Source: Escherichia coli 042
GTDB taxonomy: Bacteria > Pseudomonadota > Gammaproteobacteria > Enterobacterales > Enterobacteriaceae
Assembly: GCF_000027125.1 (NCBI RefSeq)
Contig: NC_017626.1
Strand: one strand, 5' to 3'
DNA length: 64,000 nt
Shown: positions 2,340 to 46,789 of the stretch, one piece after another
Layout: the number at the start of each line of letters is the position of its first letter
How positions within the stretch are numbered: position 1 is the first letter of the stretch
Translations under genes and position numbers: made by a program
The notes under the pieces: generated by a model
What the model saw: only the letters and a program-made list of their open reading frames with translations
What the model was told of the DNA's origin: nothing
The model's database searches: none

Positions 2340-3623
2340 TTACAGACTTCTTGAAGGTTGCGCAGCTGTTACAACACGCGGTTGATCTTCCGCGGCATCT
2401 TCCAGTGCACTTAAATCACGGTCTCTCACTTCTGGCATTTTCAGCGCAGAGATTAAACCAATCACTGAATATGCCATGATCATAATGGCGATCGGATACC
2501 AGGATTCCGTCATGGTGCAGAAAATACCCGCCAGGATAGGACCAAAACCGGAAGCGATAAGACCACCAATTTCTTTAGAAATCGCCATCCGGGTAAAGCG
2601 GTTTTTACAGCCGAACATTTCTGCCATGGTAATGTTTTCCAGAGCAAATAATCCCAGCACCGCACAGTTATGAATCACAATCAGTGCAACCATAATGGTG
2701 CTCGGGGCATAGCTTTTATCTACGATGATAGAAAGCATTGGCCACGCCAGCACAATCGCAGAGGTATTCATAATAATATACGGGATCCGGCGACCTATTT
2801 TATCGGATAACCAACCAAGGAACGGAATGGTCATAAAGCCGAGAATCGAACTGATCATCAATGCATCTGTTGGAATTGCTTTGTTAAACAATAACGTCTG
2901 CACTAAATAGCCTGCAAGGAAAGTCTGAATTAAACCGGAGTTACCAGCCTGACCAAAACGCAGCCCTGTTGCCAGCCAGAAGGATTTGCTCTGGAACATG
3001 CTACCAGCAGGTGCAGGTTTTGCTGTCGGTTGGTTGCTGTCGTTAACCTTCTCAAAGACCGGGCTTTCTTTCAGATTCATACGCAACCAGATAGCAAAGA
3101 CCATCACGACAACGCTCGCCAGGAACGGTATACGCCATCCCCACGCAAGCAGTTCCTCTTTACTGAGAATGAAGAACATAAAGGCCCAGATTGCCGTTGC
3201 GCTCAAGGTTCCGCAGTTAGTCCCCATAGCAACAAATGAGGAGATAATTCCGCGCTTACCTTTTGGTGCATATTCCGCCAGCATCGTGCCGGCACCGGAA
3301 ATTTCCGCGCCTGCCCCCAGCCCCTGAATAATACGCAGCGTCACCAGCAAAATTGGCGCAAACACACCAATTTGTGCATAGGTCGGCAGCACACCAATTA
3401 AGGTAGTACAGATCCCCATCATAGTGATGGTAATAAAGAGCACTTTTTTACGCCCGATTCTGTCGCCCATTTTGCCGAAAATAAATGCTCCGACAATACG
3501 CGCCACATAACCTGCACCGTAGGTTCCCATTGCCAGAATTAACGCCATTGCCGTTGATGATTCAGGAAAAAATATTTCATGAAACACTAACGCTGCGCCG
3601 AGCGAATATAACTGGAAATCCAT
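2340..3623 (-). pseudogene. ydfJ: MFS transporter YdfJ, C-terminal 427 codons; N-terminal ~34 codons separated by the prophage
   Basis: ORF starts MDFQLYSLGAALVF, which is internal to typical MFS N-termini; the missing N-terminus (MTIEKHERSTKDLVKAAVSGWLGTALEFMDF) is encoded at 51200..51310 on the same strand. Confidence 0.85.
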
Positions 3624-3625
3624 AA
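3615..3625. repeat. prophage attachment-site core, left junction (GAAATCCATAA)
   Basis: Identical 11-mer at 51218..51228; both lie on the ATG GAT TTC (MDF) codons of ydfJ. Confidence 0.6.
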
Positions 3626-4226
3626 TTCACAGGTGTTTTTTCCCATCCTGTGGTTTCCTTGGCGTTTTCTAGGTTTTTTCAGATAGTTGCATTTTTTAAA
3701 AAGCATCCTAAGTTCGATCTCAGTGTCTATCTGGGGCCTATTTCTGTCCCATATATGCCCCAAAAAAACTCCCCAACAGATAAGTAGTTTTTTCATGGAT
3801 TTATGCGTAAAATCAAGAACGGCTGGAAATCATTCAATACTCACACTATCGAAAAATTTACCAGCCAACCGCAGCACGTTCTTGCATAAGGCGTGTCTGC
3901 GTTTTTTCAACTATTCAGATACATCACTCCCATCACAGTCATTCCTCCGCATCAAAGGCATATAGGCTATATCACCTTGATATTTTTCTTTTTCAGATAA
4001 AAACTGTTATCTATGTATACTTTTAAACCCAATCCGTGTAGAGTCTCTGCATAAGATAGTTTGCAGTTGCCGCTTCAGCTTGCGCCATAAACCGCCTGAT
4101 TTTTGCTGCCACCTGCTAGCATTCCTGTATACCTGAAACGACAATGTTTATCTACGAACTTTAAAAACACCCAAGATAAAAATTGTCAACTATATCATAT
4201 ATAACACATTACTAATTCGAGGCTAT

Positions 4227-34679: not shown

Positions 34680-35432
34680 TTATCTCGTCACCTTCCTCAA
34701 TTGCGCTTCCGCGTATGCTTCTTCCTGCCAGCACTTTGTTACCAGTTTACCAATGACGTCCGCATACCCCTTATACCACTGATAATCGGTCAGGTCTGGT
34801 ACCAGCTTCTGGACATGACGTCGTGCCAGCGTGGTCGGTAAACGACTAAACCGGTTTCCATTACAACGCCCACAAATCTTATATACCGGTACGCCATGAA
34901 ACCGGGTTCTTTTTTCATCCAGAACAATCCCTTTACCCTTACACCCTCTGCACGCTGTGCTGGCTTCGCCCTTACCATGGCAATGCTGACATAGTTCCTT
35001 CACCCATTCTTCCTTGATTACAGATTCCCCGCGTCTGTAGTGTTTCACCACTTCGCGCAATACATTATAAAATCCCGTACCTGAACAATGCTCACAGCGA
35101 GCCTTACTTGCCGCAGACCTGGAGTAATCAGCAAAGGCAAAACTCACGAGGTAAGGAATAATCTGTAACCGGATTTCTTCACTCAATTTGTTCAATGTCG
35201 GGTTATCCAGTGCCATCGCGTAATTTAGCAGGCCTTCAATCGCAAACTGAGGGTCCTGAACACCAACTTTTGCCAGAAATAAGGCCAACCCAAGTGGTGC
35301 TTTCGACTGCACCATCCCCTGCGCTGCCATTACATCCGTAATTGTTAAACAACCGGTGCCTGTCGCTGGAGCGTCATCGCTCAATTTTGGAGATTTTGGG
35401 GAGTAATATTTTGGTAAGGCTTCAAGGTTCAT
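34680..35432 (-). CDS. quuQ: late-gene antiterminator Q
   Basis: ORF 34680..35462; start chosen at MNLEALPKYYSPK... (250 aa); Cys-rich zinc-binding region; synteny. Confidence 0.85.
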   Translation of the reverse strand: MNLEALPKYYSPKSPKLSDDAPATGTGCLTITDVMAAQGMVQSKAPLGLALFLAKVGVQDPQFAIEGLLNYAMALDNPTLNKLSEEIRLQIIPYLVSFAFADYSRSAASKARCEHCSGTGFYNVLREVVKHYRRGESVIKEEWVKELCQHCHGKGEASTACRGCKGKGIVLDEKRTRFHGVPVYKICGRCNGNRFSRLPTTLARRHVQKLVPDLTDYQWYKGYADVIGKLVTKCWQEEAYAEAQLRKVTR

Positions 35433-35445
35433 GCTCGTTCTCCAC

Positions 35446-36534
35446 TTACGCCAGTACGCCAATTGCCAGCGCGCGATCGATAAAACGAAATATCAGCTCC
35501 AGTTGGGAGCCATACTTATCTTCAAATGCCACTGTATCCGTATGCAGCTCGTTGTGATGCTTTCTGCACAAAGGCAACACAAAGAGATCATGTGCTTTTG
35601 TTCCCATTCCGCCCTGCCCGTGACCAATCAGATGATGCGGATCGTCGGCTGGCATACCGCAGCAAGCACACGGCTGTGTCTTAACCCAACGTGTGTATTT
35701 CTCCTTAACCCAGCGGCGACGTTTAGGCAGCTTCATGAAAGATTCCGGAGACTCTGGATCAACGGTGATGCTTACCACCGTCTTTTCCTGTGGTGATTTT
35801 TGTTGCTGGTGGGCGTAAGGCAACGGTGCAAGATTTTTTGTGCGTTGTTTCAATATGCTGGTGGCGGTCTGCTCTCCCGGTACGATGTCGCTTTCGCGGT
35901 ACACCGAGCAGATTTTTTCCGCTGGTAATCCCAGCGAACGACGCGATACAGCCTCAGGTAGTGCATCCACCACCTGATTGCAGACCGCCCACCAGGATAA
36001 TTCAGCCAAAGATAATTCCCGCTCCTGCGTACCGCTTATTGCGTGACGGATGACGTCAATCACCCATGCTGTCAGATTTTGTTGAGCAAGCAGCTCCAGT
36101 GATTCCGATGTCTGGTCACGCAGTTGGTTGTCGCAGTGCCAGCACAACACCATTGCGCCGGTACCATAACGGTGAATGACTGTTTCAGTGTGATGGTAAT
36201 CGCCATTAGGCCACTGGCAGGATGTAACATGACGTAATAGCCAGTCGGACAATGCGCCAACGCCGCCAGCAGCACGAATCACCCGTTCGTTACTAAAAAA
36301 CGGCAGCAATGTTTTGTCTTCCGCCAGCGGCTGGCGAACGGCAGGAACGACTCCGGATGGCAGATTACGCATGCTTTTTGGTTCCGGTTCCACCAGCACT
36401 CGAGGATTATGAAATATCTGTATGGATTCACGGCCCGGCTTAAGGACCACCAGCCCAAGCTCAGGCACCAGAACAGGTCTAAGTAATACCCGCACGTTAC
36501 CTCCAGATCCGTTGCTGGAAAGTGCGGGACGCAC
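35446..36534 (-). CDS. ydfU: DUF968-family prophage protein YdfU
   Basis: 362-aa ORF with C-terminal HNH-like Cys/His cluster (CACCGMPADDPHHLIGHG...CRKHHNELH); synteny. Confidence 0.75.
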   Translation of the reverse strand: MRPALSSNGSGGNVRVLLRPVLVPELGLVVLKPGRESIQIFHNPRVLVEPEPKSMRNLPSGVVPAVRQPLAEDKTLLPFFSNERVIRAAGGVGALSDWLLRHVTSCQWPNGDYHHTETVIHRYGTGAMVLCWHCDNQLRDQTSESLELLAQQNLTAWVIDVIRHAISGTQERELSLAELSWWAVCNQVVDALPEAVSRRSLGLPAEKICSVYRESDIVPGEQTATSILKQRTKNLAPLPYAHQQQKSPQEKTVVSITVDPESPESFMKLPKRRRWVKEKYTRWVKTQPCACCGMPADDPHHLIGHGQGGMGTKAHDLFVLPLCRKHHNELHTDTVAFEDKYGSQLELIFRFIDRALAIGVLA

Positions 36535-36775
36535 GTGGTGGGCGTTCGGAATAAGGCAGCCTGACAGAGATTATCCAGTGCCGATAGTCGAGACTGAGAG
36601 CTTTCTTAACCTCGAACCCGCGCCTGCGGTAAGAATGAATCAGCCATTCGGCCTGTTCTGCAGTGCATGGAGGGTGCTGGAACCATTCAGACTTGAATGC
36701 GTGAGAATACCGCCCGTGCGTGCAGGCAAGAACGGGCGAATTATCAGAATTGTAATATTTTGCGTTGCGTGCCAT
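36497..36775 (-). CDS. rem: small prophage protein Rem
   Basis: 92-aa ORF; position between ydfU and hokD as in Qin; start uncertain. Confidence 0.5.
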   Translation of the reverse strand: MARNAKYYNSDNSPVLACTHGRYSHAFKSEWFQHPPCTAEQAEWLIHSYRRRGFEVKKALSLDYRHWIISVRLPYSERPPRASRTFQQRIWR

Positions 36776-36841: not shown

Positions 36842-37093
36842 TTATTCTCCTGAAAAAGCAGAAAAGCCAGCTTTTATTCCGATCTCTTTCAATGCCTGTA
36901 ATGAAGTGACAAACTCACCTTCGCGCAAGATAAATCCGTCCGTGACCCGAGCATCCACAAAATTAATTAACGCAGCCCCATTCTTTCGCAAACACATAAT
37001 GCGGTAATGACTAACAAGATTTCCATTTTCAACGCACACAGCATAGAGGCCATCTTCACAAAAAATTTTACGCAGTTCTTCGATGTTCATCAT
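36842..37093 (-). CDS. hypothetical 83-aa protein
   Basis: ORF MMNIEELRKIFCEDGLYAVCVENGNLVSHYRIMCLRKNGAALINFVDARVTDGFILREGEF...; between the relBEF terminator and rem. Confidence 0.4.
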   Translation of the reverse strand: MMNIEELRKIFCEDGLYAVCVENGNLVSHYRIMCLRKNGAALINFVDARVTDGFILREGEFVTSLQALKEIGIKAGFSAFSGE

Positions 37094-37214
37094 CAGAATC
37101 CTTCCGGATAATTAGCTCTCCCCTTTAAGGGACCATCCCTCTTATCCCTGCGCGCTACTTAAGTATTTTTGATTCTATTCCGGCACCGTCCAGAACTTCA
37201 AACGCGTTGAAAAT

Positions 37215-37245
37215 AAAAACAAAAACCCGCCGAAGCGGGTTAAGT
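37215..37245 (-). terminator. rho-independent terminator of the relB-relE-hokD operon
   Basis: Minus-strand hairpin aacccgcttcggcgggtt followed by TTTGTTTTTATTTTC. Confidence 0.6.
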
Positions 37246-37309: not shown

Positions 37310-37465
37310 TTACTCCTCAGGTTCGTAAGCTGTGAAGACAGCGACCTCCGTCTGGCCGGTTCGGATTCGTACCTCGCAGAGGTCTTTCCTCGTTACCAGT
37401 GCCGTCACTATGACGGTTAAACAGATGACGATCAGGGCGATTAACATCGCCTTTTGCTGCTTCAT
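37310..37465 (-). CDS. hokD: type I toxin HokD (RelF), 51 aa
   Basis: Manual translation MKQQKAMLIALIVICLTVIVTALVTRKDLCEVRIRTGQTEVAVFTAYEPEE; below ORF-track cutoff. Confidence 0.85.
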   Translation of the reverse strand: MKQQKAMLIALIVICLTVIVTALVTRKDLCEVRIRTGQTEVAVFTAYEPEE

Positions 37466-37536: not shown

Positions 37537-37824
37537 TCAGAGAATGCGTTTGACCGCCTCGCTATATACTTCCGAGCGTTCTCTTTTCCCAACAGAAATC
37601 ACGAAAACGACAACTTTCTCGTCTATAACCTGGTATACAAGGCGATAGCCTGAAGACCGGAGCTTAATCTTGTAACAATCAGGCATACCACGGAGCTTGT
37701 TTGCTTCAATCCGGGGTGACTCAAGTACTTCAACCAGCTTCTTTTTCAACTGTTCACGTACCGTCGAGCCCAGCTTTCGCCATTCCTTTAGTGCCCGCTC
37801 GTCAAAATCCAGAAAATACGCCAT
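37537..37824 (-). CDS. relE: type II toxin RelE (mRNA interferase)
   Basis: 95-aa ORF MAYFLDFDERALKEWRKLGSTVREQLKKKL... Confidence 0.9.
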   Translation of the reverse strand: MAYFLDFDERALKEWRKLGSTVREQLKKKLVEVLESPRIEANKLRGMPDCYKIKLRSSGYRLVYQVIDEKVVVFVISVGKRERSEVYSEAVKRIL

Positions 37825-38063
37825 CAGAGTTCATCCAGCGTCACACGTACTGGCTTAGGATTACGAAGCCGTTCTTTCACTATCTCCACAAGTTCAGCAT
37901 CTTCATCACTCAGGAGTGTCTGTTTGAACGGCAAGCGTTCATTGTCAGCGATATACTCGAGCATGAGACGAAGCGCTTCAGAAGGAGTTACACCCATTTT
38001 TTCAAGCGCGGCGTAAGAACGCGCTTTAAGTTCATCGTCAATACGCAGGTTAATGCTACCCAT
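37824..38063 (-). CDS. relB: type II antitoxin RelB
   Basis: 79-aa ORF MGSINLRIDDELKARSYAALEKMGVTPSEALRLML...; stop overlaps relE start. Confidence 0.9.
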   Translation of the reverse strand: MGSINLRIDDELKARSYAALEKMGVTPSEALRLMLEYIADNERLPFKQTLLSDEDAELVEIVKERLRNPKPVRVTLDEL

Positions 38064-38087: not shown

Positions 38088-38393
38088 ATGTCATTACAAG
38101 TATCGCACTACAACATGCTTAGGGCAAGTCACGAAGGAAGTCAGAAAGTAGTCGTAAGAACGGTGATCACTGTCCGCTTTGTGCCAGGAGCAGCCATTGC
38201 TAAGTCCATCCTGTATTGTGCAGGTCAGCTCGTTTTTAAAGAGTCCGGCCATCATCTTACTGGTACAGACACCATATACTTTGTGACGGTCAGGCTACAT
38301 ATGCACAACTCAACTTATTCATCTATTTTTTGCTTTAGCATGTCAGTGTTGCTTTCTCGTCGGCGGGTGAGCGGTGACCTGACCTGTCGATAA
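38088..38393 (+). CDS. ydfV: possible YdfV-like ORF (101 aa), weakly supported
   Basis: Length and position between relB and flxA match K-12 ydfV; composition not strongly protein-like. Confidence 0.3.
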   Translation: MSLQVSHYNMLRASHEGSQKVVVRTVITVRFVPGAAIAKSILYCAGQLVFKESGHHLTGTDTIYFVTVRLHMHNSTYSSIFCFSMSVLLSRRRVSGDLTCR

Positions 38394-38595
38394 AGGAACG
38401 TAACACGTTTTATGCAACACCCGCATGCGGCAGAAAATTATTGCCGAACGTTTACCCCTGTCAACAAGCTTTACTTTCTGAGGCGCGCCAGCCCGCGAGG
38501 AAAACAATCTGAACATCAAACAATTAATGACACAAGAAATACGATTAAAGATTTTTTTGTGCATGCCGATAGTGCTTTTTTAAAAGGAGAAATCT

Positions 38596-38928
38596 ATGTC
38601 TGTCACAATTCAGGGAAATACCTCAACCGTTATTTCAAACAACTCCGCCCCGGAAGGAACATCAGAAATAGCCAAAATCACAAGACAAATTCAGGTGCTG
38701 ACTGAAAAGCTTGGGAAAATCTCATCGTAAGAGGGGATGACGACACAGCAGAAAAAAGAAATGGCTGCATTGGTACAGAAGCAAATTGAAAGCCTCTGGG
38801 CTCAACTGGAGCAGTTGTTAAGGCAGCAGGCAGAGAAAAAGAATGAAGACGCGACAGTTCAGCCTGATAAAAAAGAAGAGAAAAAAGACGATACAAATAC
38901 CGCTGGCACCATTGATATTTACGTCTAA
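38596..38928 (+). pseudogene. flxA: FlxA-like protein interrupted by in-frame TAA at codon 45
   Basis: MSVTIQGNTSTVISNNSAPEGTSEIAKITRQIQVLTEKLGKISS, stop, EG, then ORF-track 38737..38928 MTTQQKKEMAALVQ... in the same frame. Confidence 0.7.
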
Positions 38929-39299: not shown

Positions 39300-40760
39300 C
39301 CAGAAACGCGACTTAAGAATCTACCCTATGAATGGATATGCACTCAACCGAATCGATCTTGGTTTCAATCTTTTTTATCGGGATCAGGCTTCTTTTTAGG
39401 TAACTTCGGGGGCTTAACTTGCTGATGACTTTGCGTTCGGCGCGTAAGCCAGGGATGGTCAGCTTTAGGTTTAACATAGTATTTTGAGCGTAAATCAATA
39501 CGGGCATTATCCACTCGTTCATGGACACTCTTTTCATCATCCAGTGGTATAGGCTCCGGGCCATCAACATACTTTTCCCAGCCCAGCGCTTTCCCGTCAT
39601 ACAGAACGTTAATTTCACCGTCAAAGTTCTCGCATACAGTAACAACCGAATGCCTAAGTCGATATCCCCGGCCCTCACTGCGTACCTGAAACGCACTGCT
39701 TTTGTACTGGAAAGTGAGATTTTTAGACAGAACGCGCTTCGCCTGTAGGCTGAAGATATAACCCAGTTCCTCTTCAGAATGGTGCACATCAAGATGAGCA
39801 TTATCAGTAGTACGAGGCGACGTAGCGAACCGGTTGTTATAGGCTTCAATAAAGGTCGGCAACCATGCATTTGCTGTTTCAATATCACTGATATTCTGAA
39901 GCCGCATTTCTTTGACCAGCCTGTCCTGTAGTGTCTGATTGGCGCGCTCTACCCGCCCTTTTGCCTGCGGGCTGTTGGCATGGATTGGCTCGATGCCCAG
40001 TGTCTTTATCGCACGAGTGAACTGGGTCAGCTCACCTTCCCGCTCTGGGTTATTTACCCTGAATATACTGTGTCTATCAGAGTAGAGAGCGAGCGGTACG
40101 CCATGATCATTAAGGTAACCCCGGAGGGTTTCCATGTAAGCCCGGGTTGTTTCAGCAGGCACAAAACGCAACGCCATCAACGCACTGGTGGCATCATCAA
40201 TGAAAACGATCAGTGTACATCTGGGGCCTCGATTTTCAAACCAGTCATGAGGTGAGCCATCAATCTGGATCAGTTCACCGTAAGATGGTCGTCGCATGCG
40301 GCGTTGATATATACGGGCAATTTTACGACGGCGTTCACGCCATAACCCCTCTTCTACCATCCACTTTCTGAGAGTTTCAACGGATAAAGATAAACCGTGT
40401 ATCTCGCGCAATTTTTCGCACGCAAACGTAGGTCCAAAATCAGCGTAACGGCCTTTGAGGAGTGAAATTACTGTTGCTCTGAATTCAGTAGAAAAGGAAT
40501 TATTAGGACGCTTTCCACGTCGGTGGGAAACCAGACCAGAAGGCCCTTCATTTCTATACCGTTGCACCAGACGTTTAACCTGCCGAATAGAAATGCCAAT
40601 GCGTGCCGCAGCTTGTTCCTGAATAATCTGAAGTCGGTGGAGTTCCTTATGACTCATCGTAACAGTCTCTTTGATCATGAAAAATCCCCCAGAGAATTGT
40701 CTGGGGACATTTTAGAATGGTTCAAAGGGGACATTACAGCTTGGTGTTAACAATAGCCTG
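39300..40760. mobile_element. insertion sequence (boundaries approximate) carrying a DDE transposase
   Basis: Single 437-aa transposase gene in a ~1.45 kb block that interrupts prophage gene order between flxA and the replication genes; terminal inverted repeats not resolved by eye. Confidence 0.5.
39365..40678 (-). CDS. DDE (rve-fold) transposase with N-terminal HTH, IS481/ISNCY-like
   Basis: 437-aa ORF MIKETVTMSHKELHRLQIIQEQAAARIGISIRQVKRLVQRYRNEG... with integrase-core-like region. Confidence 0.8.
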   Translation of the reverse strand: MIKETVTMSHKELHRLQIIQEQAAARIGISIRQVKRLVQRYRNEGPSGLVSHRRGKRPNNSFSTEFRATVISLLKGRYADFGPTFACEKLREIHGLSLSVETLRKWMVEEGLWRERRRKIARIYQRRMRRPSYGELIQIDGSPHDWFENRGPRCTLIVFIDDATSALMALRFVPAETTRAYMETLRGYLNDHGVPLALYSDRHSIFRVNNPEREGELTQFTRAIKTLGIEPIHANSPQAKGRVERANQTLQDRLVKEMRLQNISDIETANAWLPTFIEAYNNRFATSPRTTDNAHLDVHHSEEELGYIFSLQAKRVLSKNLTFQYKSSAFQVRSEGRGYRLRHSVVTVCENFDGEINVLYDGKALGWEKYVDGPEPIPLDDEKSVHERVDNARIDLRSKYYVKPKADHPWLTRRTQSHQQVKPPKLPKKKPDPDKKD

Positions 40761-41012
40761 CTTCTCCGTGCCTTTCGGCACGTAAGAGGCTAACCTACAT
40801 GTGTCTAGCATGAAATTGGCCTCAGATTAATGTTAAGCGTCTTGCAGGACGCGTAATGTTAACTGGGGCTTTTCTCTATCTGCCGTTGGTGTCCATGCCC
40901 GAGGCAGATAGCCTCAAGCACCCGCAGTCATTCTACTTAACTAAGATTTCCCCGCAAACCGTTTTTGTCCAGCACAGTAAATATCCAACTAAACCAATGG
41001 AGTTCGCTGTAT

Positions 41013-41231
41013 TTACCGCCAGTATTCAATGCACATGACCGCCATGAACACCCCTAAAAAAAGGGCATTTATATATCCAAATATTAATATCAAAACATCA
41101 ACTTTTTCCATATACCTTGCTGTGAAGATGATGGGCATACATGATGCGAACAACCAGAACGCAACAAACAAAAACTGCAATGCGTTTTTCATTATTCCTC
41201 CTACAATCAATGTGCAATTACATTTAAACAC
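41013..41231 (-). CDS. hypothetical small membrane protein (two predicted TM helices)
   Basis: 72-aa ORF ...MKNALQFLFVAFWLFASCMPIIFTARYMEKVDVLILIFGYINALFLGVFMAVMCIEYWR. Confidence 0.35.
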   Translation of the reverse strand: MFKCNCTLIVGGIMKNALQFLFVAFWLFASCMPIIFTARYMEKVDVLILIFGYINALFLGVFMAVMCIEYWR

Positions 41232-42344
41232 ACCTCAATTTGGCCGGACATATAAATATCTAAACCAGAAAAAATCACTTACATAGCGTTACAAACTCTT
41301 TAGTCTAAAGGTTCATCGTAAAACATTCCCCATACTTATCAGTCCGTTCCGCGCCAGGTAGCTCATTGCCTTATCTGGCAACCTGTAATCAGGTTTCCGC
41401 TTTTTCAGTTGGCTGGTCGTTTAACCGACATAGTTAATCCATTAATCTAGTTGCCGGATGTTGGTGGATTTTCGCGTTTTAGTTGTTCATAAAAGTGCAC
41501 AGCTTTAACCAGTTCTTCTGATGTAACTGGGACTGGTGAGGCAGTGAATAAGGCCTGAATTTGATAGTTCGGCCTGTCGTTACAATCCTCTTTTTTCGGT
41601 ACATATTTCCAGTCACCAGACCACTACTTCCCCTGAAAGTCCGTAACGCCTTTTTTCACGTAGCGATATCGCCATGCCACTGGTTTTGCTTGCCCCGCCG
41701 TTTCATGCCCTTCCTGATAATTAATCTCGCTCATTCATCGCCCCACTCATCACAATATGCTTCGACCGGAGTTTTTCCCGCTTCATAGTCATCACGCTAG
41801 GATTCGACATCAGCAGCACTTCCACCGCGTAACTCACCATAGTCCATTAATAGTTCATCCCGCTCTTCAAAACTGATGTTATATTTAGCTGAACAAAAAT
41901 CAGCCACTTTGTTCTTCCTCATCGTCTTTTATTTCGTGGTATGAGTAATTGCAGTAGTTAAAGAAAATTTCTTATGCTCCGTCATGAATTTCCTCAGGTG
42001 TTGCGTCATCGTCCACTTCGAATACATCCTCAAAATCTCCACCAGCTATTCCCGTTTCAATAATAATTTTGAACTTTCGCATTTCACTACCGCCCTTTCG
42101 GGCGGCCTCCTGATGTTCTGAGGGTGCAGAAATCCATCCGGTTAAGGATTAAATTTTATTTACAGAACTGAATTTAATTATTCAGATATACGTATCTGTA
42201 GCCTTACGAATCTACTCACTGGATGCCTCTTTCATAAAAATAATCCAGTGGGTTTTATCGTTTTTTCCCTGTTCGTTGACAGATAACAGGTTTTCTGTCT
42301 GTCAGTGCCAGAATCTGGCTTACCGGTATTTGCGTTTCATTCCA

Positions 42345-42701
42345 TTAAAAAATCAGAACGCCGTGCGGCCTCAACACCCGAAAGGCTTCTTTAAATCTCT
42401 GTCGCGAATCATCACGCCAGGCATCTTTATTCAGCCGTCCATATTTCTTTCCCATCCAGGCGTTATCACCAACACTCTCAAGATGCGGAGGGTCTAATAC
42501 AACCATCGAAAAAGATGCGTCTGCAAATGATAATGCACGAAAATCTGCGATAATGTCAGGGCTGATAATCAAGCGTCTCCCATTGCGTAATGTGTATCCT
42601 TCTTTTCTGATATCGCTGAATATCGCCCGTTCGTCAGACTTATCGAACCAGAACATGCGGCTGCCACAGCACATATCAAGAATGGTTGCCGGTGCACTCA
42701 C
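42345..42701 (-). pseudogene. SAM-dependent DNA methyltransferase-like ORF, apparently truncated (118 aa)
   Basis: Motif I-like DMCCGSRMFWFD and motif IV-like VVLDPPH; ends at TAA after ...HGVLIF, frame continues protein-like (WNETQIPVSQILALTDRKPVICQRTGKKR). Confidence 0.45.
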
Positions 42702-43120
42702 TGCGCCACGTCCTGAAAATTACCCTGATAGAAAGCCAGTATGCGCTGCATAACTTCGCTCTTCCGGCACTCGCGACAGATTATGTTTAGGCGACTGTCG
42801 TAGCGACGTATTTCTCCGTCAGGTGATGACCAGATAAGGTCCGGATCAACCACAGCAGGTTTCTTCACCTTTGCCCTCGAGAGTTTTTTGCGGGCGTTTT
42901 GCCAGTCCTTACGCGCCTGTTCAGAGGGGAATAACCCGTAGCCGGAGTTGTATACATCGCCACTGGCTACCAGCTCTCTGGCAAGAACGCTCATCAGATA
43001 TCTAGTCGCACCTGTTTTAGCTTCCAGTTGCCGTAACGTCTCACGGCCGCTCTGGCGCACGAGTTCCACCACCTGCCATTTAATTTTTTCCCGCTCTTCT
43101 TGTGTAAAAACTTTTGCCAC
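42698..43120 (-). CDS. hypothetical prophage early protein (140 aa)
   Basis: ORF in the replication module downstream of the initiator gene; start overlaps methyltransferase-like ORF. Confidence 0.5.
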   Translation of the reverse strand: MAKVFTQEEREKIKWQVVELVRQSGRETLRQLEAKTGATRYLMSVLARELVASGDVYNSGYGLFPSEQARKDWQNARKKLSRAKVKKPAVVDPDLIWSSPDGEIRRYDSRLNIICRECRKSEVMQRILAFYQGNFQDVAQ

Positions 43121-43160
43121 AAGTCCCCCTTAAAATTACCTCATGACCTGAAATCAACAC

Positions 43161-44180
43161 TTATCCTCTGAAACCAGGCGGAATTTCTGTATCCGGTTCA
43201 GAAATATGATTAACACAACGCTGTACAGGTGAACGTCCCAGGCGGATGACCAGTTCGTCCCATTTTTCGCGGAGCTTTGACGGGCTCATGATGTTTTTGA
43301 CCCAGAATGGATCTCGCTGAACCCGACCAAACATTTCGCAAATTTGTCTGTGGCTTCTGCCATCCAGCATCCGCATTGTGCGCACGTCATTGGCCCAGGC
43401 AGTCCAGTTAGGCTCTTTTGGTCGCATGATCTCGCCATCATCACTGGCTGCCTGTTCGTAGAGACCCACGATCCGCCCCCAGATCCACTGCGCACACGCC
43501 AAATCCTCCCTGCTACCCCACTGGCGTTTTTTCGCACTAAACACAACCGCGTCGGAGTTCCGGGTTAAAAAATCCTGTTCAGTCGTCTGCGGGTCCGGTT
43601 GCGAAGCTTCCGGACGAAAAGTGTTTTTATTCTCTGTAGTAGTCTCTGTTGTATTCTCTGTAAGATCATCAGGCCATTTTGACCCGATGACATTGGGTCG
43701 TTTTGAACCAATGGAGCGTTTCATTTTGACCTCTTCCATCGTGTCATTTTGACCTGATGGAGCGGCGCATTTTGAACCGATGGATTCGCTCAATTTGCCA
43801 CCATCTAAAAGCTCGCTCCCATAGTTGATCGTGTAGAAATTGGTCATATCGCGCTTTGATTTATTGAGCTTTTCACAACGCAAAAGCCCCAGCGTTTTCA
43901 GACTTGCAAACGCGCGCTTTAACGTTGACTCTGACCAGAATGGGAACTGTTCCAGCCATTGTTCCGTTGTGTTATAAATCCAGCGAACACCATCACATTC
44001 CATGCCGGAGTTGGTATCTCTCAACCAGTAGTGCAGTTGTTGCAAAACAATGGCTTCGTTTAAGCCAATTTTCATTGCCAGCTGCGTGTTTATAACCAGT
44101 GGGCGTTCAGCAAAAAGAAGGCTCATAATTCCATCCAGCTTTTTGTTGGTATTGCTGTCGATACGCAAGTTTGAAAGCAA
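43161..44180 (-). CDS. putative phage replication initiator (lambda O position) with internal iteron origin
   Basis: 339-aa ORF at the position of lambda O relative to the Cro-like gene; contains a block of direct repeats inside the coding sequence. Confidence 0.55.
   Translation of the reverse strand: MLSNLRIDSNTNKKLDGIMSLLFAERPLVINTQLAMKIGLNEAIVLQQLHYWLRDTNSGMECDGVRWIYNTTEQWLEQFPFWSESTLKRAFASLKTLGLLRCEKLNKSKRDMTNFYTINYGSELLDGGKLSESIGSKCAAPSGQNDTMEEVKMKRSIGSKRPNVIGSKWPDDLTENTTETTTENKNTFRPEASQPDPQTTEQDFLTRNSDAVVFSAKKRQWGSREDLACAQWIWGRIVGLYEQAASDDGEIMRPKEPNWTAWANDVRTMRMLDGRSHRQICEMFGRVQRDPFWVKNIMSPSKLREKWDELVIRLGRSPVQRCVNHISEPDTEIPPGFRG
43675..43790. repeat. putative replication origin: ~5 direct repeats (iterons) of cattttga(a/c)c...atgga, period ~23 bp
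   Basis: Repeats cattttgacccgatgacattgggtcg / ttttgaaccaatggagcg / cattttgacctcttccatcg / cattttgacctgatggagcgg / cattttgaaccgatggattcg inside the initiator gene. Confidence 0.5.
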
Positions 44181-44628
44181 TTGCTTTTTCTATAAGTTCG
44201 TCAGTTTCACGATCCACTACGGCAGGATCAGCAAAAAGCAGTCCGGACTCCACCACATCGCCATATTCTTTGTTTAACCCGGCGATCATGCACGTGATGC
44301 TTTTTCCGTCAGTAATTTCACGATACAACCTGAAATCATTAATCCGGATAGCCTCCATAATTGCAGGCACTAGCGCCGTGAACTTTTCACGCTTATCCCT
44401 GGTGTCGATAGCCTTCCAGCGTTCAAATATCTTCACTCGATTAACGCCAAGCGCTCGCTGATCAATCGCGCCACCTTCATATGTGACACGCTGAACATCG
44501 ATGTTCGGGCGCTCTTTCAAAGCCCAGAATGCTTCAGTGATTAATATCGTCGCCTGCTCCTGTGTCATTCCTGGTCGACATATCCAGGCATCCAGAGCCT
44601 CACGAGCCTGTTCAGGAGTGATTTTCAT
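44107..44628 (-). CDS. YdaT-like prophage regulatory protein (cII position)
   Basis: 173-aa ORF directly downstream of the Cro-like dicC; pattern ...IFERWKAIDTRDKREKFTALVPAIMEAI... resembles YdaT-family proteins. Confidence 0.45.
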   Translation of the reverse strand: MKITPEQAREALDAWICRPGMTQEQATILITEAFWALKERPNIDVQRVTYEGGAIDQRALGVNRVKIFERWKAIDTRDKREKFTALVPAIMEAIRINDFRLYREITDGKSITCMIAGLNKEYGDVVESGLLFADPAVVDRETDELIEKAIAFKLAYRQQYQQKAGWNYEPSFC

Positions 44629-44842
44629 TGTTCAACCGCCCCGCCCGCTTCGTCTTACGATATTCATCATAAACTTTGGGATCATACTGAAGCTCCCCGC
44701 CAGATGCCTCCTGTAGACGCATCGCGCGACCTTCGGGAACTAAATCCCCTTTCCAGCTATAAAGCGAAGCCAAACGAATACCTGCTGCTTGTGCAAGTTT
44801 TGTTTTTGAACCGAAATACAAAAGAGCGTCAGTTTTAAGCAT
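44612..44842 (-). CDS. dicC: Cro-like regulator DicC
   Basis: 76-aa ORF MLKTDALLYFGSKTKLAQAAGIRLASLYSWKGD... divergent from dicA. Confidence 0.85.
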   Translation of the reverse strand: MLKTDALLYFGSKTKLAQAAGIRLASLYSWKGDLVPEGRAMRLQEASGGELQYDPKVYDEYRKTKRAGRLNNENHS

Positions 44843-44925: not shown

Positions 44926-45333
44926 ATGGAAACAAAAAATTTAACTATCGGCGAACGCATCAGGTATCGTCGGAAAAACCTCAAACACACCCAAAGGTCT
45001 CTTGCTAAAGCCCTGAAAATCTCCCATGTGTCTGTATCACAATGGGAACGGGGTGATAGTGAACCTACAGGGAAGAACCTTTTTGCCCTCAGCAAAGTAT
45101 TGCAATGCTCACCAACATGGATTCTATTTGGCGATGAAGACAAGCAACCAACACCACCTGTTGAGAAGCCAGTTGCCTTATCCCCCAAAGAACTAGAGCT
45201 CCTTGAGCTGTTTAATGCACTGCCAGAATCAGAACAGGATACCCAGCTCGCCGAAATGCGAGCTCGAGTAAAAAACTTCAATAAACTCTTTGAAGAATTA
45301 CTAAAAGCCCGTCAGCGGACAAATAAAAGATAA
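44926..45333 (+). CDS. dicA: XRE-family repressor DicA
   Basis: 135-aa ORF METKNLTIGERIRYRRKNLKHTQRSLAKALKISHVSVSQWERG... (HTH). Confidence 0.9.
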   Translation: METKNLTIGERIRYRRKNLKHTQRSLAKALKISHVSVSQWERGDSEPTGKNLFALSKVLQCSPTWILFGDEDKQPTPPVEKPVALSPKELELLELFNALPESEQDTQLAEMRARVKNFNKLFEELLKARQRTNKR

Positions 45334-46600: not shown

Positions 46601-46789
46601 ATGAAAACGTTATTACCAAACGTTAATACGTCTGAAGGTTGTTTTGAAATTGGTGTCACTATCAGTAACCCAGTATTTACTGAAGATGCCATTAACAAGA
46701 GAAAACAAGAACGGGAGCTATTAAATAAAATATGCATTGTTTCAATGCTGGCTCGTTTACGTCTGATGCCAAAAGGATGTGCACAATGA
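46601..46789 (+). CDS. dicB: cell-division inhibitor DicB (62 aa)
   Basis: Internal start MKTLLPNVNTSEGCFEIGVTISNPVF... within ORF 46496..46789. Confidence 0.85.
   Translation: MKTLLPNVNTSEGCFEIGVTISNPVFTEDAINKRKQERELLNKICIVSMLARLRLMPKGCAQ

Follow-up and report, generated by a model that had tools for sequence, protein, structure and literature searches.

The open reading frame between hokD and ydfU in a Qin-type prophage of Escherichia coli 042 is rem, coding for a probable antirepressor of DicA

We analyzed a window of 64,000 nucleotides from Escherichia coli 042 (contig NC_017626.1), in which a preliminary description had singled out a minus-strand open reading frame at 36842..37093. The frame starts with ATG, codes for 83 amino acids and terminates with a stop codon at 36842-36844; our translation is identical to the one reported earlier. 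A Shine-Dalgarno sequence, GGAAGGA, can be read on the same strand at 37099..37105, 5 nt before the start codon. The immediate upstream neighbor is the type I toxin gene hokD (37310..37465, minus strand), which is itself preceded by the type II toxin-antitoxin pair relB-relE (37537..38063, minus strand); both assignments come from the ORF list and from RefSeq. A strong intrinsic terminator (37214..37241, minus strand), in which AACCCGCTTCGGCGGGTT at 37224..37241 precedes a run of T residues, ends hokD/relBEF ~130 nt away and separates relBE-hokD from the frame, which was thus correctly placed downstream of it. Directly downstream lies an unnamed 92-aa ORF (36497..36775, minus strand; RefSeq 'hypothetical protein' WP_012304870.1, phrog_1212 with E=2e-35), followed by ydfU (DUF968/HNH; 35446..36495, minus strand) and by ydfT, coding for a Q antiterminator (34680..35432, minus strand).

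The frame at 36842..37093 is the gene rem (b1561 in K-12) of the cryptic prophage Qin. The RefSeq gene 'rem: protein Rem' (WP_000980994.1), annotated in an MG1655 derivative and in strain E2865 at locus positions 3443-3694, coincides with it (locus position 3001 corresponds to window position 36400), and an exact-sequence look-up returned an identical protein in UniProt, REM_ECOLI ('Uncharacterized protein Rem'). The amino-acid sequence is the same as in K-12 Qin, the gene order relB-relE-hokD-rem-(92-aa ORF)-ydfU-ydfT is common to both, and the location of rem between hokD and ydfU in a Qin-type prophage is hence confirmed. The window matches K-12-derived and other E. coli genomes at 99.9-100% nucleotide identity. 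Megablast detected the segment 36400-37500, with a coverage of at least 80%, in 2,779 of 5,426 complete E. coli genomes, and the annotation string of the matched genomes reads 'hypothetical protein | rem: protein Rem | hokD | ydfU'. The preliminary description had located the frame between rem and relBEF, upstream of rem, and had named no annotated K-12 Qin gene at this position; the frame is rem itself, annotated at these coordinates. The earlier 'rem' was probably the 92-aa ORF at 36497..36775, taken for rem by mistake, and it is this ORF that is the truly uncharacterized gene of the neighborhood. Homologues of the 92-aa ORF are present in mEp460 (92% identity), PPompW (77%), the metagenomic phages L010 and L013 (39-48%) and Gifsy-2 (STM1021.1n, 38%), and its conserved core consists of the C-terminal ~66 amino acids.

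We next considered conservation and coding status. Exact copies of the Rem sequence occur on at least 1000 contigs, and tblastn recovered the frame at 59-100% identity, including copies in the temperate phages PhiR42_1 (100%), HannyBb and mEp460_ev081 (96%). A search of 5.8 billion proteins yielded 138 Rem homologues, with Escherichia, Shigella and E. albertii as the named sources, and a profile search run exhaustively over 1.84 billion representatives returned 56 matches only. Six large candidates with multi-stretch hits in the profile search (P0126, P0133, P0146, P0148, P0158 and P0159) are adhesin-stalk or Ig-repeat proteins and were discarded as repeat or compositional artefacts. When short family members were compared with a phage collection by tblastn, the matches were one Klebsiella phage and rem loci only. 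All 120 homologues listed carry the PF27490 'Rem' tag, and the ORF matches phrog_340 with E=4e-21; an hmmscan of Rem against our Pfam copy gave no hits, because the PF27490 model was absent from that copy. The Rem family is thus a small one, curated by Pfam. Nei-Gojobori estimates for rem, obtained with the homologues of mEp460, PPompW and Rac-442/2 (62-96% identity), gave dN/dS values of 0.11-0.41, so the frame is kept in related prophages and rem is under purifying selection. Together with the 138 homologues and the number of contigs with the exact sequence, these values establish that the ORF is clearly coding and not a chance frame.

Rem and its relatives are always found in the slot preceding the Q antiterminator gene, in the order (hok)-rem-DUF1367/IrsA-YbcO-Q or rem-DUF968-Q. 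DUF1367 (IrsA), YbcO and Q follow the rem-like genes in Rac-442/2, in loci L009 and L013 and on the contig of P0152. In mEp460, Rac-442/2, PPompW and L009, the gene immediately preceding rem or its relative is a hok gene; relBE is absent from all three phage rem loci examined. Wherever the immunity region is visible (mEp460, Rac-442/2, PPompW, L011 and a Klebsiella phage), it comprises a 135-aa DicA-type repressor and a dicC of the P22_Cro type. The Hok proteins of L003, L005 and L006 share 98-100% identity, and the terminator is likewise conserved, in prophages where DicA is only 56-63% and Rem 62-96% identical; the hok-rem block travels as a unit and has diverged much less than the immunity region.

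Rem-family proteins are bipartite. A C-terminal half with the pattern ALIYF..G..GF.LR.DEFVTSL..L.EA.KKAG is common to proteins of 56-99 aa, and the N-terminal parts differ; Qin-type Rem proteins form a clade of 83-87 aa with an extra N-terminal half, predicted to consist of a helix and a β-hairpin. P0143 and P0145 combine the N-terminal ~24 amino acids of Rem (MKIEELREIFSEDGLYAVRVENG) with a C-terminus of unrelated sequence, an arrangement that points to shuffling of the two halves as modules. P0132 (80 aa) is a deletion chimera in which an ORF located between ydfV and flxA (38343..38564, minus strand) continues into the C-terminal 34 amino acids of Rem (codons ~50-83). Another chimera is found in some Qin variants (9 contigs), where residues 1-51 of DicC are fused in frame to Rem from residue 7, with the junction 'GGEL/EEL' (P0003/P0005; L015 6001-6384 and L016 3586-3969). 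It corresponds to a fusion of dicC at 44612..44842 with rem at 36842..37075 of the window, everything between them (ydfX...relBE-hokD) being deleted, and the resulting order is dicA <- -> dicC'-'rem -> ydfU -> Q. The fusion places the body of Rem directly under the DicA-repressed dicC promoter and could create a positive-feedback loop.

The genetic target of Rem is encoded in the same prophage. The 135-aa HTH repressor gene dicA (44926..45333, plus strand; BLAST to K-12, translation intact) is divergent from dicC (44612..44842, minus strand), which codes for a Cro analogue and whose promoter is repressed by DicA. The cell-division inhibitor gene dicB (46601..46789, plus strand) is, together with dicF, the output of Rem-triggered derepression; dicC and dicB were located by BLAST to K-12 and assigned from the literature. 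All three genes are intact in the window, at 99.9% identity to K-12. DicA has HTH_3 as its sole domain and does not contain the Ala-Gly dipeptide that forms the cleavage site in cleavable repressors. The distance from rem to dicA in the window is ~7.8 kb, an interval other than the 3.6 kb reported to separate rem and the dicBF operon in K-12 (Ragunathan et al. 2023, J Bacteriol 205:e00129-23; PMC10448788).

That Rem relieves repression at the DicA-controlled dicB promoter is already known: the annotation of rem goes back decades, and a role as antirepressor was described in 2023. Ragunathan et al. sought an antirepressor of DicA, a 135-aa non-cleavable CI analogue, and arrived at Rem through a PSI-BLAST chain that started from GfoA and FsoA, the antirepressors of Gifsy-1 and Fels-1, and passed through an intermediate of 33% identity. 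Expression of rem from Ptet induced an in-locus dicBp-lacZ fusion 165-fold, constructs with the native ribosome binding site or with Plac were functional too, and wild-type cells that produced Rem became filamentous and ceased to grow, effects that were lost in Δqin and ΔdicB ΔdicF strains. Deletion of rem left spontaneous, urea-, heat- and stationary-phase induction unaltered, and DicA was found to be intrinsically labile to heat and urea (PMC10448788). Induction by Rem has been reported to be RecA-independent. We found no further paper on Rem in the literature following a 2024 preprint and a y-ome survey of the same year. The family, unrecognized and regarded as uncharacterized in the preliminary description, is therefore that of REM_ECOLI and PF27490; identity to an already characterized protein, which the description had set against its own proposal, is what the comparison returned. 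Its suggestion of a possible regulatory role is borne out, as Rem regulates the prophage switch.

It is highly probable that Rem is a small antirepressor that neutralizes DicA, such that dicBp and dicCp open and DicB and DicF block division. Once Rem is made, DicA (the CI-like, non-cleavable repressor encoded at 44926..45333) would be neutralized, the divergent early promoters would be released, and the DicB protein and the DicF sRNA would then be produced and arrest cell division. By analogy with the Gifsy prophages, Rem most likely binds the DicA dimer directly: GfoR and GfoA form A2B2 complexes in which the repressor is released from DNA, and DicA has been listed among the homologues of GfoR and GtgR (Lemire, Figueroa-Bossi & Bossi 2011, PLoS Genet 7:e1002149). 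Like Rem, the Salmonella Gifsy and Fels antirepressors GfoA, GfhA, GftA and FsoA are small, are encoded outside the immunity region just upstream of irsA/Q, are paired with non-cleavable DicA/GfoR-type repressors of ~135 aa, and derepress early promoters upon ectopic expression. We located the corresponding slot in Gifsy-2, where gftA lies between dinI and an irsA homologue; gftA thus follows dinI, whereas Qin-type rem follows hok. Direct repressor binding and the A2B2 stoichiometry are features of the Gifsy proteins and would apply to Rem by analogy. This functional and positional analogy is strong, and sequence kinship to GftA, the Gifsy protein compared, is undetectable (hhalign probability 0.45%, E=0.13 for the Rem family versus Gifsy-2 GftA; no BLASTP alignment). 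Tum from coliphage 186 and AntC from N15 represent the same concept, a small protein inactivating a non-cleavable repressor. Their sequences are unrelated to that of Rem, Tum being a 146-aa protein with a DinI-like half, and unlike Qin-type rem they are SOS-controlled.

We compared Rem/DicA pairs from different immunity types to outline a putative interaction surface. Between mEp460 and the window, Rem is 96% identical but DicA only 56%; across DicA, conservation amounts to 40-55% in the HTH half, 67-94% in the 'CSPTWILFGDEDK' (CSPTW) segment and 50-68% in the C-terminal helices. In L011, the HTH half of DicA is 88% identical to that of K-12, and the Rem relative is 32% identical overall, sharing the C-terminal half only. 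Together, these identities suggest that the conserved half of Rem contacts the conserved, non-operator-reading parts of DicA. The C-terminal half of Rem thus probably contacts the 'CSPTWILFGDEDK' segment and the C-terminal helices, which are conserved across immunity types. With such a contact outside the HTH, cross-talk could take place between heteroimmune prophages, as it does in Salmonella. The AlphaFold model of Rem, of moderate confidence (pLDDT 74), has the order helix, β-hairpin, β-hairpin, helix. A single-chain co-fold of DicA-(G4S)6-Rem had a pTM of 0.31, with Rem at a pLDDT no higher than alone. Searches for structural relatives yielded none, either by sequence profile or by Foldseek, for which the best matches had E=3 in PDB and E=0.037 with a TM score of 0.27 in BFVD.

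An indirect action of Rem, for example as a protease adaptor that lowers DicA levels, via DicC, or by competition at the operator or RNA polymerase, could also derepress dicBp. The 2023 study contains no binding experiment (PMC10448788), the 2024 preprint calls the mechanism unknown, the co-fold had a pTM of 0.31, no homology could be detected to GftA, on which biochemical studies exist, and destabilization is conceivable because DicA is labile to heat and urea. Against these points, Rem is an 83-aa α/β protein in which Pfam, NCBIfam and PADLOC searches detected no DNA-binding or enzymatic domain, its gene slot and repressor type match those of the Gifsy antirepressors, for which direct binding to the repressor is established, and distant members of the family are LexA-controlled, as Gifsy antirepressors are. 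We thus regard an indirect route as quite unlikely, and direct neutralization of DicA remains the preferred reading.

The position of rem next to two toxin systems had led the preliminary description to consider an immunity role, and Rem could in principle be an immunity, antitoxin or regulatory partner of hokD or relBE. Indeed, every Qin-type locus, and L009 as well, has hok directly upstream, and Hok remains 98-100% conserved even with DicA at 56-63% identity. A weak NCBIfam match to SocB_toxin (E=0.0099) points in the same direction, but at 14.9 bits versus a cut-off of 210 bits it is noise, and PADLOC returned no defence or toxin-antitoxin model for Rem. The toxicity of Rem is fully explained by dicB/dicF (PMC10448788), relBE is missing from the phage rem loci examined, and other family members occur without hok, after DUF551, helicase-sized or other unrelated genes; a partnership with either toxin is accordingly very improbable. 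Both hok/sok and relBE are self-contained systems, and relBE would lie outside the mechanism proposed for Rem. The remaining alternative, a chance or decaying frame without function, could appeal to the defective state of the prophage, to the absence of a phenotype of the rem deletion in the conditions tested (PMC10448788) and to the listing of rem as still 'uncharacterised' in the 2024 y-ome survey. It is contradicted by the low dN/dS values, by the conservation of the frame in functional phages (mEp460_ev081, PhiR42_1 and HannyBb), by the strong Shine-Dalgarno sequence and by the strong gain-of-function phenotype obtained with the native ribosome binding site (PMC10448788). Conservation and expression data have already refuted this reading, to which we assign practically no weight, and we return to Rem as an antirepressor of DicA.

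We investigated how rem may be controlled. Scanning 600 nt upstream, where 0.009 boxes are expected per region, we found near-consensus LexA boxes (CTGT-N8-ACAG, 16-17 of 20 positions) at -144 to -189 in four of five distant Rem-family members, upstream of short or divergent genes (L008 97-112, L009 4209-4224, L010 2541-2556 and L011 7812-7827). The published Gifsy-2 LexA box upstream of dinI was recovered by the same scan as a positive control. In contrast, none of the four Qin-type loci (the window, mEp460, Rac-442/2 and PPompW) contains a CTG-N10-CAG sequence within 600 nt upstream of rem, and exact matches to CTGT-N8-ACAG number two in the entire window (16230 and 56111), a count at the level of chance. 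The genes gfoA and gftA have LexA boxes, like the distant Rem-family members and unlike Qin-type rem; among the Gifsy-type antirepressors, FsoA is the exception in being repressor-controlled (PLoS Genet 7:e1002149). These findings suggest that the Rem family was ancestrally SOS-controlled and that the Qin clade has been rewired. A Qin-type rem that lacks a LexA box would explain why no link between Rem-dependent induction and RecA/SOS has been reported, and the contrast between distant and Qin-type members narrows the question of what induces rem.

Qin-type rem, without LexA control, is probably transcribed from its own weak promoter just after the hokD terminator, as judged from promoter-like motifs. 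A candidate σ70 promoter (TTGAAG-18 nt-TAGAAT; 37172..37201, minus strand) scored 9 of 12 in a consensus scan, in an upstream region that holds three such sites versus 1.4 expected by chance. All four Qin-type hok-rem spacers retain the -10-like TAGAAT and the leader, and the hokD/relBEF terminator is kept in every hok-rem spacer aligned. A structured leader RNA did not reach significance (z = -1.74). Control by the immunity repressor is disfavored, since the upstream region is nearly identical in mEp460, whose DicA is only 40% identical in its HTH half. The signal acting on the Qin clade might be read by such a dedicated promoter just past the hok terminator, or might consist of leakage from the relBE-hokD operon. 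If leakage occurs, the stress that activates the toxin-antitoxin system would inactivate DicA too, leading to DicB/DicF-mediated division arrest and phage exclusion. A composite scenario, with an SOS-wired ancestral family, a Qin clade of 83-87 aa rewired to another signal, and cross-induction of heteroimmune prophages by a single Rem, may be envisaged but is rather doubtful as a whole.

Finally, we compared the prophage copy in the window to K-12 Qin. The two are 99.9% identical across relB..cspB and across dicC..ydfE, and K-12 Qin is the more decayed: the window has an extra 4.8 kb (39550-44348) between the ydfW and ydfX remnants, with genes for an ISNCY transposase, a YdaT-family protein, a DUF977 protein and a methyltransferase; several non-K-12 strains carry the segment in identical form. 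The ISNCY-family transposase is intact in the window (437 aa; 39365..40678, minus strand). What is annotated in K-12 as 'ydfW' (49 aa) is the C-terminal tail of this transposase, and ydfX is likewise truncated; K-12 Qin has therefore suffered a deletion here. The gene flxA (38596..38928, plus strand) carries an in-frame premature stop in the window at 38728-38730, after codon 44 (...KLGKISS-stop-EGMTTQQ...), where K-12 FlxA has 110 aa; the stop results from the change of one base, and the surrounding stretch is 99.9% identical.
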